Shown: in pieces, positions 7,078 to 36,690 of the stretch
Numbering within the stretch: the stretch's first letter is position 1
Layout: each line of letters starts with the position of its first letter
UHGV virus genome: UHGV-0304565
Length of the DNA stretch: 36,690 nt
Reading direction: 5' to 3' (one strand)
Source of the DNA: a virus
The notes under the pieces: model-generated
Told to the model about the DNA's origin: nothing
The model's input: the letters and a program-made list of their open reading frames with translations, nothing else
Databases searched by the model: none
Translations under genes and position numbers: made by a program

Positions 7078-7374
7078 GATTTTATTCCTTAGTATAAATA
7101 TTAAAATTTAACTCAAGAAAGAAAGTGTTTTGCACTCGTTCCTGATGCGTTCAATTATCGATACGCGAAAAAAGATTGCAAGTGTTTTTTTAAGTTTTTT
7201 TGCAGGTATGAAAGTCCTAGAAATAAAAGCTAGATCGTCGAAGGTGTTCCCTAAATAAATAATAAATTCCGGCTTTTGACCTTATATATTTATACGGGGG
7301 AGAATTGAATGAGTGTTAAACGAATGGCATGTAAAATAATAACCGGACTTAGCCGGTTATTACCCTTATAGAAA

Positions 7375-7896
7375 TTAAAACGGAAGGATTCGTTCAACCC
7401 AATCGAAGAAAATAAGTATTTTTCTACCGTCTTCCAACTTAAGTGTGACTAGACAGGCGTCAACGCCATCTGACGTTCCCTCAATTTCGCGACCGTCTGC
7501 CATGTAGACCCTTATAGATTTGCCGTTTTGGTAAGCCTGACGACATATCTTAAAAAAGTCACGACGTGATGGCTGATTAACCATCTGTTCATTGTTTAGC
7601 GTTAGTCGACCTGTGAATGAAGTGTCAACCTCTTCTATGCCCGACTCAATTGTGCTAATGCGCTCAAGAGGGAGCCTTATACGATTTGTGTTGCTAAGCG
7701 GATCTGGTGTGAGGTTCAGCTTATTTCTTGCGCTCAATAGCCCGTAGACATACATGCAAAACACTTGGCCGTCTTCGAGAGTGACTCTTACAGGAAATTT
7801 TGCACTCCGCCAGAAGAGCAAGGTGCGCTCAGCATGTTCGTAGTCTCGCGGCCAGACTTCAGCCGGTATGCCGTAGGTGATGTCCAATGTTCTCAT
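7375..7896 (-). CDS. Hypothetical protein (173 aa)
   Basis: Start overlaps the stop of the upstream gene (ATGA); hairpin aataaccgg/ccggttatt downstream at 7338-7365. Confidence 0.55.
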   Translation of the reverse strand: MRTLDITYGIPAEVWPRDYEHAERTLLFWRSAKFPVRVTLEDGQVFCMYVYGLLSARNKLNLTPDPLSNTNRIRLPLERISTIESGIEEVDTSFTGRLTLNNEQMVNQPSRRDFFKICRQAYQNGKSIRVYMADGREIEGTSDGVDACLVTLKLEDGRKILIFFDWVERILPF

Positions 7897-8486
7897 TCTG
7901 ATACTCTTAGAGGTGTTTTCAGCAACCCAAATTTAAATTCTTTGTTACCAACGACAAAGAAGGGAACCTCAACATAGATTTTTTTATCGACGGATTTAGA
8001 GTTCGCTGTTTTCTGTATGTCACGAACGATACGTTTTGAGATATTTTCATCGATAAACAATACCTTTCCATTTGTATTCCCTTCAGCCTTGGCGTAAGTA
8101 ACGATAGGCTCTTCATTGCCAACCCTAATGTTTACTTGGCAACCTGTTGTAGCCATTTCATCACAGTAAAGTGTGCCGTCTTGAACTTCCAAAACAATTC
8201 CAGATGGCTTCATGGCTTCGTCAGAGCTTACATTAACGTTTTCTGGTACAGCGGTCCCGTTAATTTGCAACCGTAATCTTTCTTTTCCTGCATTAAGTAT
8301 TGTTTCTTCTGCGTTATCTGAGAATCTGAACCAGACTGGTTGAATCAGACCTCGTGATTCGTATTTTAGTACGTCTTCAGAAGTATACATGCTGTACGTT
8401 TTTTGCATGTCGGAGACGATATCTGACAACGCATTTGCGGAAAATGACGAGAGGTATATACAAGCAAGAAGTAACGAACGTTTCAT
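7893..8486 (-). CDS. Hypothetical secreted/periplasmic protein (197 aa)
   Basis: N-terminus MKRSLLLACIYLSSFSANA-LSD: signal peptide with A-x-A cleavage site. Confidence 0.6.
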   Translation of the reverse strand: MKRSLLLACIYLSSFSANALSDIVSDMQKTYSMYTSEDVLKYESRGLIQPVWFRFSDNAEETILNAGKERLRLQINGTAVPENVNVSSDEAMKPSGIVLEVQDGTLYCDEMATTGCQVNIRVGNEEPIVTYAKAEGNTNGKVLFIDENISKRIVRDIQKTANSKSVDKKIYVEVPFFVVGNKEFKFGLLKTPLRVSE

Positions 8487-8666
8487 TTTTATACAGCGAT
8501 TGTTGCAAAGTAGAATTATAAATATCCAATAGTCTCAAACGATAAGTTTTCAACTGTAAATAGCAGACGTGTTTCTCTAAAAGCTGTGCGGCAAAGGCGT
8601 TGTTGCCGCACTCTGTCTATTAGCTCTTCAAGTCTGGCAATTCTGAAATTGACTAAGAATCCAATA

Positions 8667-8945
8667 TTACGGCAGTTTGCTTAGAATTTGCTCTAAATCT
8701 TCCTTTGTCATATTAGAGTTCTCATAGATGCGCATGATTTTCTCACGAGCCTTAGCAGAGACTCCAACGGCAGATGAAACTTTGTCAAATTCAGCCATTG
8801 TCATCGCTTCCAGAATGGTATTGATAACTTCAGCCTTAGACATTTTGATGTTTTTTTCTTTTAGTTTCATTTGAAACTTTCCAAGTTTGTCATTGGCCTT
8901 ATCGGACAATGCCACCTGACAATAAGTTGTTTTCTTTTCGCTCAT
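8667..8945 (-). CDS. Hypothetical small protein (92 aa), possible DNA-binding regulator
   Basis: Starts 2 nt after the helicase stop; hairpin plus T-run downstream on the minus strand (8588-8612). Confidence 0.5.
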   Translation of the reverse strand: MSEKKTTYCQVALSDKANDKLGKFQMKLKEKNIKMSKAEVINTILEAMTMAEFDKVSSAVGVSAKAREKIMRIYENSNMTKEDLEQILSKLP

Positions 8946-31719: not shown

Positions 31720-31737
31720 ACAAGGATTTTTTTGAAC

Positions 31738-34700
31738 ATGGAACAGTTCAAGAAGAAAAAGTTACCGCTGTTTATTGCCGGTGCGGGTGGTAAAAAAAGC
31801 AGCAAAAGCTCTAGCCGTACACCGGTTGAAGCCGACGATACCGTAAATTCTCGTGCAATGGCCGCTATCCTCGATCTTCTTGGGGAAGGTGTAATTGGCG
31901 GCTTGGTAAATGGCGCAAGATCTATTTTTATCGACGATCTGCCGATTGTAAATGAAGACGGTTCCTCCAACTTCAGCGGAATCACATGGGATTTTCGCGA
32001 CGGTTCGCAAGACCAGACTCCAATGTCTGGCTTTGATTTTGTCGAAACGCCTAAATCCGTCAATATCCAGTTAAAAAAAACACATTATGTAACGGTTTCA
32101 ATCGATAACGATGAAGCTGATCGGGTTCGTGTCATCATGAAGTTTCCTTCTTTGCGAAGCATAGATAAAAAAACTGGTGACACGAACGGTACAACCGTTG
32201 AGTACAAGTTCCAGATAGCAAATGGCGACTCAACATTTGTAGATGTGGTCGCAGAAGGTGAAAAAAGCGTTGGCATTAAGCTAACTGCAAAGAAGACAGG
32301 TGTTTATTACCGTAGCTATGAGCTGAAGCTGTCTAAGCCTGGACGCGCGTACAAGGTTCGTGTAGTCCGTATTACCGATGATAACAGCAGCCAGTATCTC
32401 TATAACGATACATGGGTGGACTCAATAGGTGAGATTGTAGATACACCGATGAACTACCCAAACTCTGTGCTGGTGGGGCTGAAGGTTAATTCTGAGCAAT
32501 TTGGTAGCACCATGCCATCTCGTTCGTATTTGGTGCGTGGATTAAAAATTCGCGTGCCGTCAAACTACAACGAGGCCAGCAACACTTATGATGGTGTATG
32601 GGATGGCACTTTTAAGCTGTTGTCTTCTTCAAACCCTGCGTGGATTCTCTTTGATTTGCTTACCAATGCTCGATATGGCCTTGGTCAGTATGTGTCGGAA
32701 TCTATGATTGACCTCGGCCAGCTATACCAGATCGGTCGATATTGTGACGAAGAGGTTGATGATGGCTTTGGTGGTAAAGAGAAACGCTTTGCAATCAATA
32801 CGCAGATCACCAGTCGACAGGACGCATACCGATTAATTCAGGATATTGCCGGTGCATTCCGCGGTATGGTGTTTTGGGCTGGTGGCATGGTTAACATCAT
32901 GCAGGATAGTCCATCAGATCCGGTAATGATGTTTACCAACTCCAACGTCAAAGATGGACTGTTTACCTATAAAGGTTCTGCGCGTAAAGATCGCCCATCC
33001 GTTGCGCTCGTAACCTACAACAACAAGGAGGACGGTTATAAGCAAAACATCGAGTACGTTGAAGATCAGGACGCAATGCGCCGTTATGGTGAGCGTAAAA
33101 CAGAAGTCGTAGCATTTGGATGTACAAGCCGAGGCCAGGCTCACCGAGTTGGTTTGTGGCTTTTGTATACCGCCAGAATGGAGTCGGATGTAATTACATT
33201 TACTGCCGGTTTAGACGCCTCATTTCTGATGCCCGGTGAAACCGTTCTGATTCAGAACAAATATCGTGCAGGTAAACGTAACTCCGGTCGAATTGTGGAG
33301 TTTACCAAAAACAGCATCACTCTCGATGCGCCTGTGTCGTTAGCTAAAAGCGGCAGCTTTATTCGGATATTGAATCAGGAAGGCAAAATCGTTGAACGCG
33401 ATGTTCTTGAAACTGGCGAAAACATAACAAAGGTTACGTTTTCAAAAGCTCTGTCGTCAGCGGAAACGCCTGTTTTGAACGGTGTCTGGACAATTACAGA
33501 ACCAGATCTCGAACCTATGCGCGTTCGCATCGTTAACATCGCGCAGGGGGAAACGCCGGGTAGCTTTGACATCACCGCTGTTGAGAACAATCCGTCTAAA
33601 TATGAGGCGATTGACAATGGTGCAACGCTTATCCCGCAGAATACGACGGTATTGGACCCGACTTACTCCAAGCCGTCTAATTTGCAAATCACCGAAGGGA
33701 CTTATCTCTCAAGCCCAGGCAACCTGTCAGTAAAACTGACTGCAACATGGGAAGGGAAATCTCCAGAGTATTGGATCAGTTGGCGACGTTCTGATGAAAA
33801 CAATGTATCGAACTGGCAATCGGCGCGTGTAACCGAAGAGCAATACGAAATCGTTAATGTTGCGGAGAATGGACGCTACGACTTCCAGCTGTATGCGGTT
33901 TCATTCAACGGTAAAAAAACAGAGATTATCAGTACCGTTTATCAGGTGCTGGGCACAATGACACCGCCAGATGCTCCAACGTCATTAACGGCCGTTGGAG
34001 ACTATCGTAATGTGATACTGAATTGGGTTAATCCAGATTCGGTAGACCTTGATCACATTAATGTTTACGCATCCCAGACCAACAATCTGGATACAGCGAA
34101 ACTGATCGCAGAGTCTGCAAGCACCACCTTTACACATGCTGGTCTTGGGGATAGCGAAACGTGGTATTACTGGGTTCGAGCATCGAACAAGCGAGGTATG
34201 TTAAGTCCTCCGAACTCAAACTTGGGGACAGAGGCGACAACTCGCGATGTACTGTCGTTCCTGACAGGCAAAATTACGTCTTCTGAACTTGGCCAGGCTT
34301 TACTTGAGGAAATCGACTCAAAAGTATCTCAGGAGGCGGTGGATTCCATCTATGAACAGATGGATGAAAGTCTGAAAAGCCTTGATGACAAGTTTACAGA
34401 GACAGATCGGCGGCTTGAAGAAGCTCAAAACGATCTTAAAACGGATGTTTCCAGTACTGTAAGCAAGGTGGAAGACGCTCTTAAGGAAGTTGAAAACTCT
34501 AACGCTGCTTTAATTCAGTTGCAGGAAACTGTATCAGAGCAGGGCAAAGCTGTAGCTGGAGCTGTTGAGGCGGCAAATGCAGCACTTGACAATTCATCGG
34601 CTTTAATCGCGGAGGAACGTGAAGCACGAGTTGAGGGTGACTTGGCAAACGCGAAAGAAATTGAGGCGATGAAGTCAACTGTAGATAGCAGTTTAGCCAC

Positions 34701-35898
34701 CATTGAAGAAATGAAAAAAACCGTGGCTGAAGTTGAGCGTTCCAGTGCCGAAGTGACAACAAACATTGAGGCATTGGCTAAAACAAACATCGATCTTGCT
34801 TTGCGTCAGGATGAAGATCAGCACAAGCAGATGGTGAGTAATGCGAAGATCACCACAACTCAGAAGGCTTTTGCAGACGATATATCTGCAATGGCTACGA
34901 AAATGGAAGAAATTCGCGCTGAAATAAATGAGGATATCAGAGCTTCAATCACTGAAGAAACAACGGCTCGTGTAGATGCTGATAATGCTATTGCAAGCAG
35001 AATCACCAAACTTGAATCAAAGATTAACGATGATATTTCTGCCGCAATTGTGAGTGAACAAGAGGCACGAGCTAGTGCCGATGAAGCACTTTCAAAAGAA
35101 ATACTATCGTTACAAGCCAAAATTGAAGGCGATATTAGTGCAGCTATATCTGAAGAAAAAATTGCCCGAGCAACTGCTGATGAATCTTTAGCACAACAGA
35201 TAACCACATTGAAGAGCCAGACGGGTAAAGATATTAAGGCGGCTGTAGCAGAAGAGACGAAAGCCAGAACTGACGCTGATTCGGCTTTGGCTTCTAGTAT
35301 CACTAATCTACAGGCGCAAACGAGCAAAGATATTAATGCCGCGATTACGTCTGAGGCGACTGTGCGCACAAACGCCGACAATGCTCTAAGTGGACGAATT
35401 GACACCTTAAAAGCATCAGTTGATGGAAATACAGCGACAATTCAAGAGCAGGCAACTGCTATTGCTGATACTAACAAAAAGGTTTCAACCGCGTGGACGT
35501 TGAAGATGGAAACGTCAACAAGTGGTGGGCAAAAATATGTCGCAGGTATTGCGCTTGGAATTGACACCACGGGGCTTTCCCAGTTTTTGGTGCAAGCAGA
35601 TCGATTTGGTCTAGTCAACTCAGTTAACGGAAAGATCACCACACCATTTGTTATCGAAAACAGCGTTGCATACATGAATGGTGCGTATATTAAGGATGGT
35701 ACTATCACAAATGCAAAGGTAGGTGACTTGCAATCAACAAACTTCGTAAGCGGACGAGCCGGATGGCGATTTGGTAAAAATGGAACGCTTGAGATCAACG
35801 GCAATAGTGGCGGCAATGGGAGATTGGTTATAAATGGTCAGAGGATTGACGTTTATGATGACAATAATGTCCTTCGAGTTAGGATTGGTCAGCTTTGA
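31738..35898 (+). CDS. J: Host specificity protein J (central tail fibre/tip attachment protein)
   Basis: Multiple segments match lambda J (YPN..LVG..V.SEQFGS, VPSNYN, WDGTFK, AFGCTSRGQAHR.GLWL, KITxSxLGxxLLE, YVAGIxL...LSQFLV). Contains a long coiled-coil insert and lacks the lambda C-terminal domain. Confidence 0.9.
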   Translation: MEQFKKKKLPLFIAGAGGKKSSKSSSRTPVEADDTVNSRAMAAILDLLGEGVIGGLVNGARSIFIDDLPIVNEDGSSNFSGITWDFRDGSQDQTPMSGFDFVETPKSVNIQLKKTHYVTVSIDNDEADRVRVIMKFPSLRSIDKKTGDTNGTTVEYKFQIANGDSTFVDVVAEGEKSVGIKLTAKKTGVYYRSYELKLSKPGRAYKVRVVRITDDNSSQYLYNDTWVDSIGEIVDTPMNYPNSVLVGLKVNSEQFGSTMPSRSYLVRGLKIRVPSNYNEASNTYDGVWDGTFKLLSSSNPAWILFDLLTNARYGLGQYVSESMIDLGQLYQIGRYCDEEVDDGFGGKEKRFAINTQITSRQDAYRLIQDIAGAFRGMVFWAGGMVNIMQDSPSDPVMMFTNSNVKDGLFTYKGSARKDRPSVALVTYNNKEDGYKQNIEYVEDQDAMRRYGERKTEVVAFGCTSRGQAHRVGLWLLYTARMESDVITFTAGLDASFLMPGETVLIQNKYRAGKRNSGRIVEFTKNSITLDAPVSLAKSGSFIRILNQEGKIVERDVLETGENITKVTFSKALSSAETPVLNGVWTITEPDLEPMRVRIVNIAQGETPGSFDITAVENNPSKYEAIDNGATLIPQNTTVLDPTYSKPSNLQITEGTYLSSPGNLSVKLTATWEGKSPEYWISWRRSDENNVSNWQSARVTEEQYEIVNVAENGRYDFQLYAVSFNGKKTEIISTVYQVLGTMTPPDAPTSLTAVGDYRNVILNWVNPDSVDLDHINVYASQTNNLDTAKLIAESASTTFTHAGLGDSETWYYWVRASNKRGMLSPPNSNLGTEATTRDVLSFLTGKITSSELGQALLEEIDSKVSQEAVDSIYEQMDESLKSLDDKFTETDRRLEEAQNDLKTDVSSTVSKVEDALKEVENSNAALIQLQETVSEQGKAVAGAVEAANAALDNSSALIAEEREARVEGDLANAKEIEAMKSTVDSSLATIEEMKKTVAEVERSSAEVTTNIEALAKTNIDLALRQDEDQHKQMVSNAKITTTQKAFADDISAMATKMEEIRAEINEDIRASITEETTARVDADNAIASRITKLESKINDDISAAIVSEQEARASADEALSKEILSLQAKIEGDISAAISEEKIARATADESLAQQITTLKSQTGKDIKAAVAEETKARTDADSALASSITNLQAQTSKDINAAITSEATVRTNADNALSGRIDTLKASVDGNTATIQEQATAIADTNKKVSTAWTLKMETSTSGGQKYVAGIALGIDTTGLSQFLVQADRFGLVNSVNGKITTPFVIENSVAYMNGAYIKDGTITNAKVGDLQSTNFVSGRAGWRFGKNGTLEINGNSGGNGRLVINGQRIDVYDDNNVLRVRIGQL
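34924..35418 (+). repeat. Five tandem ~99-bp (33-aa) repeats inside J
   Basis: Protein repeats of the pattern DI.AAI..E...R..AD.AL...I..L.A... Confidence 0.65.
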
Positions 35899-35928: not shown

Positions 35929-35994
35929 ATAGGTAGGTACTAACTTAATGGTGGGCATGGAACGCCCACCATATCTAGGAGCAAAGGATAAATG
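35929..35994 (+). promoter_or_regulatory. Late regulatory module: ATAGGTAGGTACTAACTTAAT motif, GC hairpin (35950-35970), SD aggag, ATG
   Basis: Same architecture as 19498-19563 (motif, GGTGGGC/GCCCACC hairpin, TAGGAGCAA SD). Confidence 0.45.
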
Positions 35995-36690
35995 TGGTAC
36001 AGGGAAGGTACAATAAATCTCACTAAAGGAAATAAAACTGTAGTGGGAACAGGCACAGCCTGGGGAGTGACGGCGAACGGCGTCCTTCCAGGTATGATAT
36101 TGATTGGCCCCGATAATAAGTTATATGAAATAAAATCAATCGAGAGTGACACTTCGTTAACTCTTGTTGAAGCCTACGGTGGCAGCACCCAAACAAATGT
36201 TCCGTGCAGAATAATTACGACCTATGAAGGTGATTTGACCCAATTTAGTGCTCGTTTTACTGCGCTTATGTCTCGCATGTCAGCCGATTCAAAAATGATG
36301 CGTAGTTGGCTGACTGCCGTGGATGAAATAACAATTGAGCGTGAAGATGGCACGGAATTAACCGTAAAATCCCTTACGCAGATCGTTAATGAGCACAATG
36401 AGAACCTAGAATGGTATAAAGAAAATACTCCCATAATTAACACCGCTGCACAAAAAGCTAAAGAGGCGGCAGCGAGCGCAACAGCGGCCAAAAAATCAGA
36501 AACCAACGCAAAAGCGAGTGAGACCGCGGCGAAGAGCAGCGAAACGAACGCGAAGTCCAGCCAGACGGCAGCGAAAACCAGTGAGACGAATGCAAAGGCG
36601 AGCGAGACGGTGGCGGTAAACTCGGCGAAAGCCGCCGCAACCAGCCAGAGCGCAGCAAAAGCAAGTGAGGATGCTGCAAGAGAATATGCA
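35992..36690 (+). CDS. Side tail fibre protein, 5' partial (runs off the window)
   Basis: Open frame of 233 codons to the window edge; C-terminal part shows the K.SETNAK.SE.AA repeats typical of phage side tail fibres; strong SD. Confidence 0.7.
   Translation, partial: MWYREGTINLTKGNKTVVGTGTAWGVTANGVLPGMILIGPDNKLYEIKSIESDTSLTLVEAYGGSTQTNVPCRIITTYEGDLTQFSARFTALMSRMSADSKMMRSWLTAVDEITIEREDGTELTVKSLTQIVNEHNENLEWYKENTPIINTAAQKAKEAAASATAAKKSETNAKASETAAKSSETNAKSSQTAAKTSETNAKASETVAVNSAKAAATSQSAAKASEDAAREYA

Follow-up and report, generated by a model that had tools for sequence, protein, structure and literature searches.

How non-contractile tails find the energy to open and to breach the cell envelope is an open question, and the answer offered by fold switching has been shown for one pyocin and only predicted for phages. 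The locus described here bears on it. The stretch of 36,690 nt analysed here (the window), from UHGV virus genome UHGV-0304565, belongs to an SSU5-like E. coli phage-plasmid and encodes a tail-tip or central fibre protein, J. A first-pass annotation of this DNA had singled J out for a long coiled-coil insert with tandem repeats and for an end well short of that of lambda J, implying that both were unusual. What are the insert and the short ending? We find that J is an unusually long, regular member of the T1/F-pyocin class of central fibres, for which this design is the norm, and that its repeats carry a motif known from a segment that refolds in a pyocin.

A central fibre of the T1 and F-pyocin class

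J is 1388 residues long when counted from the TTG at 31732 that opens its longest open reading frame (ORF), and all residue numbers given here are counted from there; relatives are annotated from an ATG two codons downstream, at 31738, which is probably the true start. When residues 834–1388 were searched against sequences in the PDB, T1 gp33 (9L9P) matched with E = 2.7e-28 over the 33-residue repeat region and the C-terminal end, and the F2-pyocin central fibre (25VF) with E = 1.9e-27, residues 970–1193 of its 1204 aligning to repeats 3–5 and the tip. The coil and tip also matched DEV gp56 (9ZE4, E = 1.9e-19), and lambda J (8IYK, E = 8.3e-10) matched over residues 840–942 only. The very end of J aligns to that of T1 gp33 (...RLRVQIGRL at residue 1168 of 1172). 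In a phage collection, the last 359 residues match 1769 records, 401 of them over 80% or more of the query; many Drexlerviridae and HK022 are among these.

Because T1, the pyocin and these 401 phage records all match the coil, the tip and the ending, a coil with 33-residue units followed by a tip domain and a stop is the norm for a large J subfamily and no peculiarity of this phage. The supposed oddity of J is thereby lost: coil-plus-repeats and a short ending are found in T1 gp33 (receptor FhuA), in F-pyocin fibres and in hundreds of siphophage J proteins, so that insert and truncation are largely general in a J family of known receptor. We hold the architecture of J and its homology to the T1 and F-pyocin central fibres with high confidence, and the lesson for annotation is that J proteins which look ‘truncated’ and have a long coil are normal central fibres of the T1/pyocin type.

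The N-terminal part is of the lambda type. Pfam recognizes FNIII-A_GpJ, Phage-tail_3, fn3 and Phage_Tail_Tip in J, which therefore has the lambda-type hub domains (Phage-tail_3 and FNIII-A_GpJ) and fibronectin-III (FN3) domains. BLASTP aligns residues 20–862 with residues 2–836 of lambda J (32% identity over 876 columns, E = 4e-118) and, in a second segment, residues 1233–1321 with lambda 841–931. Since the alignment stops at residue 862 and resumes at residue 1233, the net extra segment amounts to about 370 residues (863–1232), where lambda has essentially nothing; the insert is thus real relative to lambda, although smaller than the roughly 390 residues first given. The conserved segments said to flank it are in place, namely the junction motif KITSSELGQALLEEID (residues 847–862) and the block QKYVAGIALGIDTTGLSQFLV (residues 1267–1287), with 404 residues between them. 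At the other end, J runs on for 101 residues after LSQFLV, versus 235 in lambda J. The Phage_Tail_Tip match is full-length (E = 6e-42) and leaves 18 residues after residue 1370; the lambda-type C-terminal receptor-binding domain is indeed missing, as the first-pass annotation had it. Foldseek matches the tip to the central fibre of lambda (8XCJ, 8XCI) and to the tip fibre of SU10 (7Z4B).

Shaft, repeats and their variation among relatives

The insert is not uniform. Its hydrophobic period is 3.54 (heptad) over residues 863–1064 and 3.66 (hendecad, 11/3) in the repeats, the latter fitting 33 = 3 × 11, so the earlier description of the whole insert as heptad-like applies to its first 200 or so residues and not to the repeats. 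AlphaFold2 (AF2), run on the monomer with alignments, predicts helices at residues 852–1030 and 1040–1220 and beta strands from residue 1224. At residues 1029–1040 (196–207 of the model) the helix is predicted to break, with a predicted local distance difference test score (pLDDT) below 50. The break falls on an acidic cluster inside the island KTNIDLALRQDEDQHKQMVSNAKITTTQK, which is nearly invariant, with conservative substitutions only, in the five aligned J proteins (window, SSU5, PhiR41_1, CMS-2020a SCU-175 and Cyrano) and in the aligned relatives from IMG/VR. It is the only nearly invariant stretch of the shaft among the aligned SSU5-like J proteins; the heptad zone differs among relatives by indels of 7 or 11 residues.

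Five 33-residue units lie exactly where five 99-bp tandem repeats had been reported. Their mean pairwise amino acid identity is 47.6%, against 9.9 ± 1.6% (maximum 17%) in 2000 composition-preserving shuffles, and the autocorrelation of the array peaks at 33 and 66 only. As DNA the units are just 42–59% identical to one another, which is why Tandem Repeats Finder, like a second DNA repeat search, reported nothing useful at 34924–35418. The repeat helix is predicted with pLDDT above 90. Across 68 distinct units, the consensus is xGxDIxAAIxxExxARAxADxALAxQIxxLKAQ: E12 and R16 never vary, D20 is conserved in 99% (all three are invariant in the window array), and small residues are fixed at unit positions 7, 8, 15, 17, 19, 22, 24 and 32.

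These features recall a segment of the F7 pyocin central fibre, residues 921–1083, that forms a trimeric coiled coil (He et al., bioRxiv 2026, PMC12874032). When the pyocin binds a cell, this coil converts into a triangular beta-prism, the tip opens and the tape measure protein is ejected; glutamines placed at the small residues of the segment block killing and leave assembly intact (PMC12874032). The switching strands are marked by the motif SxSxxMxxLxS, often with an arginine four residues from the acidic M position, and 21 of 24 siphophage central fibres are predicted by AlphaFold to behave in the same dual way (PMC12874032). The 165-residue array of J contains 13 copies of the full 11-residue motif, both directions counted, compared with 2.8 ± 1.6 in shuffled sequences (none of 3000 reached 13). 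The copies fall at three fixed phases of the unit, namely 7 for the reversed motif and 15 and 22 for the forward one. The motif is not enriched in the heptad zone (2 matches versus 2.5 expected), in the first 862 residues or in the tip. The E12–R16 and R16–D20 spacings match the published salt-bridge pattern of the switch motif, and the array is almost exactly as long as the switching segment of F7 (165 versus 163 residues). Our search of the literature on PhiR41_1 and on hendecad repeats in tail fibres turned up nothing relevant.

The array was expected to vary in length between relatives, and it does. The window and SSU5 have 5 units each, PhiR41_1 has 9, and CMS-2020a and Cyrano have 10; 58 loci from IMG/VR fall into classes of 4, 5, 6, 9 and 10 units, with 10 units in 24 of them. 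The indels in the array are exactly 33 residues long and in register, as between PhiR41_1 and CMS-2020a SCU-175, which are exactly one unit apart, and this argues for a structural unit rather than slippage. Slippage is also unlikely because the units are old and diverged at the DNA level. To judge from that divergence, the array is not slippage-prone, and length classes differ between lineages through gain or loss of whole units.

The end of J varies as well. The short C-terminal ending is found in 44 of the 58 IMG/VR loci; 13 run on for 178–235 residues past FLVQADRF (96 in the short type) and one stops after 79. One protein fragment with a longer C-terminal end carries Pfam PF12421. A parallel is known in Drexlerviridae, in which TolC-binding phages have a C-terminal extension of J in place of a separate receptor-binding protein (RBP) locus (PMC8594841). 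Beyond the array, the tip is almost identical between Salmonella and E. coli members.

Nucleotide homology of 96–98% to Cyrano and CMS-2020a SCU-107 stops at nt 2583–2586 of the J gene (window position 34317, at the end of LLEEID). Because it ends there, residues 861–862 mark a mosaic, or recombination, boundary between the hub part and a shaft-plus-tip module. In the SSU5-like Klebsiella phage vB_KpnS_p4727 (PQ492289; L009:294-12455), the J homologue is 4046 residues long. Beyond the equivalent KITSSELG..LLDEID junction lie about 2900 residues in which coil segments alternate with about ten jelly-roll, carbohydrate-binding-like modules, followed by the usual tip domain and an extra C-terminal domain. 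Evidently, the junction after the FN3 domains can quite generally take up large modules.

Features of the J–side tail fibre region of the window, and positions of gp32/gp31-type gene pairs in relatives
Feature	Position	Strand	Basis or context
Tail-tip / central fibre protein J gene	31732..35898	+	ORF, Pfam domains, lambda J similarity
Hub and fibronectin-III part in common with lambda J (residues 20–862)	31789..34317	+	BLASTP
Junction motif KITSSELGQALLEEID, closing the hub/FN3 part	34270-34317	+	
Heptad-type alpha-helical shaft (residues 863–1028, about 165 residues)	34318..34815	+	Hydrophobic period, AF2 helix
Nearly invariant island KTNIDLALRQDEDQHKQMVSNAKITTTQK (residues 1017–1045)	34780..34866	+	Alignments of relatives
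Acidic cluster with predicted helix break (residues 1029–1040)	34816-34851	+	AF2
Five tandem 33-residue repeats (residues 1065–1229, 165 residues), putative fold-switching segment	34924..35418	+	Repeat statistics
Beta-structured tip domain (Phage_Tail_Tip / DUF1983, PF09327; Pfam residues 1236–1370)	35419..35841	+	Pfam, AF2, Foldseek
Last 18 residues (...VYDDNNVLRVRIGQL) and stop codon, T1-type short ending	35842..35898	+	T1 gp33 alignment
Side tail fibre gene, 5′ part, cut by window end	35992..36690	+	PHROG tail-fibre families
N-terminal anchor domain of side tail fibre (about residues 1–90)	35992-36261	+	Profile search
42-bp tandem repeat in side tail fibre, 14-residue Ala/Ser-rich units (ETNAKASETAAKSS-like)	36499-36615	+	2.8 copies, 73% matches
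gp32/gp31-type pair, L046-type	L046:5591-6909		Directly after J, lipoprotein gene before pair
gp32/gp31-type pair, Cyrano-like (L029)	L029:9272-10390		After side fibre gene, lipoprotein gene follows
gp32/gp31-type pair, plasmid ESBL242	95,049-95,947 (L092:1550-2448)		About 40 kb from J, among early genes, outside window region

A putative fold-switching spring and its alternatives

The explanation we favour, to which we give about an even chance, is that J is a central fibre built on the T1/F-pyocin plan, with the repeat array as a metastable spring, a docking place for side fibres and separate tip proteins. It starts from the observed architecture, homologies, motif and copy-number variation, and takes the trimeric state, the docking site, the attachment of tip proteins and the fold switch by analogy with better-known fibres. 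Past the hub and FN3 domains, the trimer would form a long helical shaft composed of the heptad coil of about 165 residues, the acidic break and the 165-residue array of five 3 × 11 units. Side fibres would dock at the conserved acidic break through an N-terminal OB-like domain. The shaft would end in the beta-structured tip, with no receptor-binding domain of its own, and recognition would be delegated to the side fibre and its adhesin and probably also to tip-bound proteins of the gp32/gp31 type, encoded in this lineage elsewhere on the plasmid. As in the F7 pyocin, the array would be a coiled coil in the virion; engagement of the receptor would refold it into a triangular beta-prism, pulling the tip open and releasing the tape measure protein. 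That such a switch operates in this phage we put just short of an even chance.

Several points weigh against this explanation. The monomer prediction gave the helical state only and neither supports nor excludes a beta-prism, and the three strands at the start of the tip that might seed one (residues 1224–1230, 1233–1245 and 1251–1262) are predicted with pLDDT of about 50. The switch has been demonstrated experimentally for the F7 pyocin only, the case for phages being an AlphaFold prediction (PMC12874032). The shaft in the window is more than twice as long as that of the pyocin, and half of it is without the motif. The docking site is drawn from analogy alone. No gp32/gp31-type genes were found within the window. 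Finally, what is reported of the receptor of SSU5, the lipopolysaccharide (LPS) core, credits its recognition to the fibre adhesin and is silent on what triggers J.

Might the array instead be inert? It would then be a stable trimeric coiled coil serving only to hold the side fibres and to determine how far the tip reaches, its unit number tuned to the thickness of the host surface layer and no refolding involved. Such a spacer would agree with the confident helix prediction; length classes of 4–10 units would shift the reach by about 5 nm per unit, and the roughly 2900 residues of coil and carbohydrate-binding-like modules in the Klebsiella relative resemble a reach or adhesion device. We nevertheless think it rather unlikely. 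It has no need for the invariant E, R and D core residues, nor for a small-residue pattern that is specific to the switch motif and enriched only in the repeats, and the homologous pyocin segments do switch (PMC12874032).

Improbable, in our view, is a fast-evolving, length-variable array with a direct part in host range or in the evasion of host defences. Copy number does vary, as the single-unit difference between PhiR41_1 and CMS-2020a SCU-175 illustrates, but slippage is unlikely at the DNA identity found between units, copy number is uniform within a lineage (10 units in 24 loci, for example), and the unit sequence is under strong constraint across all 68 units. The tip, moreover, is nearly the same in Salmonella and E. 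coli members, which makes it probable that specificity resides elsewhere. There is next to no chance that the periodicity is a by-product of Ala/Glu-rich low complexity with no real repeat behind it. The biased composition, the long antisense ORFs and the silence of the DNA repeat finders might suggest as much, yet composition-preserving shuffles never approach the observed identity, the indels in relatives are register-exact steps of 33 residues and T1 holds the same 33-residue unit. Shuffling and register-exact indels together refute an origin of the repeats by chance or low complexity.

If the favoured fold switch does operate, the 33-residue unit may be the structural quantum of the coiled-coil-to-beta-prism spring, each unit supplying three 11-residue strands, which would match the three motif phases found per unit. 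SSU5-like J proteins would then form a series of springs of 4–10 units. Each spring would sit on a heptad shaft that does not switch and that holds the side fibres at its conserved acidic kink, and the number of units would tune the stored energy or the stroke length of tail opening. We offer this as a speculation that is more likely wrong than right; if true, spring tuning would be seen in a genuine, inducible phage of E. coli and not just in pyocin-like particles. What makes the idea of a fold switch testable in a true phage is that J is an unusually regular example whose close relatives differ only by whole units, and that such J proteins are found in inducible phage-plasmids of E. coli and Salmonella that are amenable to engineering.

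Receptor recognition, gene context and comparison with known systems

The separate side tail fibre (Stf) gene that had been placed at 35992 is confirmed; it follows J after a gap of 93 nt. A profile of its N-terminus matches the F2-pyocin side fibre, likewise at the N-terminus (25VE residues 3–83, E = 5e-7), and also 23GD_B (E = 8.5e-9). These matches make the N-terminal domain of Stf a homologue of the domain that anchors the pyocin side fibre. In F pyocins, the side fibres sit on the acidic kink of the shaft via an N-terminal OB-like domain (He et al., PMC12874032; Gu et al. 2026, PMC13455828), and by analogy the conserved acidic break at residues 1029–1040 of J is a candidate docking site, which we propose tentatively. 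When the N-terminus of Stf was used as a tblastn query, the only hits were SSU5-like phages and a single Aeromonas phage, the context in the latter not being comparable.

By the accepted model, J proteins of the T1 type bear non-covalently bound RBPs encoded beside J together with cor (PMC8594841); in T1 the RBP-type proteins beside J are gp32 and gp31. The T1/Drexlerviridae arrangement, in which RBP genes and a cor-like lipoprotein gene stand directly downstream of J, is absent from the window, where Stf follows J. Homologues of gp32 and gp31, tracked as phrog_557 and phrog_425, do occur in relatives at three positions (see table), and a cor-like lipoprotein gene accompanies the pair in two of the three. 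By this indirect evidence, the tip of J in the window is probably not bare and would carry small proteins of the gp32/gp31 type. Two genes downstream of Stf in ESBL242 and PhiR41_1, of 107 and 230 codons, were considered for this pair on the basis of size and rejected, having no similarity to T1 gp32 or gp31; their sequence features suggest that they may be lysis genes.

SSU5 is reported to bind the core oligosaccharide of LPS via its fibre protein gp22 (PMC12312913, citing Kim et al. 2014). On this account, and since the nearest complete relative encodes a gp32/gp31-type pair, a receptor strategy unlike that of lambda is plausible, as the first-pass annotation had proposed. The side fibre and small tip proteins, the latter possibly encoded far from J, are where receptor specificity should be looked for.

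The genes around J run in the order tape measure, M, L, K, I, J and Stf. Several long ORFs (91, 181 and 124 codons; 34499–35816) run antisense, on the minus strand, across the coil and tip region; we take them to be candidate by-products of the biased codon content of the shaft and not genes. Full-length J has 77.5% nucleotide identity to that of Salmonella phage SSU5 and 90–98% to those of E. coli relatives. A large protein database gave only fragments of J and Stf shorter than 1000 residues, and full-length comparisons drew on phage, plasmid and IMG/VR DNA. The J of plasmid ESBL242 (NZ_KP792123) is 98.9% identical to that of the window, which is collinear with this plasmid from about position 1100 onward. 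Positions 1–1105 and 7372–8697 have no match of more than 300 aligned bases to the otherwise collinear plasmid and are therefore variable regions of the element.

Four known systems place J. With lambda J (PDB 8IYK, 8XCJ) it has in common the hub, the FN3 domains and the initial stretch of the central straight fibre (lambda residues 2–836 and 841–931). Lambda J, by contrast, is without the repeat shaft, having only about 55 residues from the junction motif to LSQFLV, and has a further C-terminal part of about 200 residues with the LamB-binding domain that J of the window does not have. gp56 of Pseudomonas phage DEV (PDB 9ZE4; PMC12892993) is a J-like coil with a tip domain, to whose end separate receptor-binding proteins are recruited, but it is a short podovirus fibre of 429 residues without the hub part.

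T1 gp33 (PDB 9L9P; PMC11945409) and the J proteins of Drexlerviridae (PMC8594841) have the same family of 33-residue repeats, the same conserved element preceding the repeats and the same C-terminal ending as J, and at the level of the family they use separate proteins of the gp32/gp31 type. Residues 821–1172 of T1 gp33 are unresolved and have been modelled as a 370 Å alpha/beta fibre (PMC11945409). The T1 coil is only about 200 residues long, with two nearly identical 33-residue units (LTDIREVIATETEALSREIDQLKAQIGDDIQAS; L010:11044-14562), a recent duplication of a type of unit whose copies in the window are old and diverged. In T1 the RBP genes and cor lie directly downstream of J, whereas in the window the side fibre gene comes at once after J and the pair of the nearest relative is about 40 kb off.

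The F-type pyocins (F7 PyoF CFP; F2 fibre, PDB 25VF; PMC12874032, PMC13455828) differ from J in several respects. The shaft of J, at about 370 residues, has an extra heptad zone of about 165 residues and far more regular repeats; the window belongs to a genuine phage, a phage-plasmid, with no small tip-protein genes adjoining J; and the switch, putative in J, has been shown by experiment in F7. In plan, however, the two have much in common: a hub with FN3 domains, an alpha-helical shaft, a periodic segment of about 33 residues with SxSxxMxxLxS and Arg/Asp ladders, a segment of the switching type of nearly equal length, a terminal Phage_Tail_Tip domain and a side fibre with a homologous N-terminal anchor.

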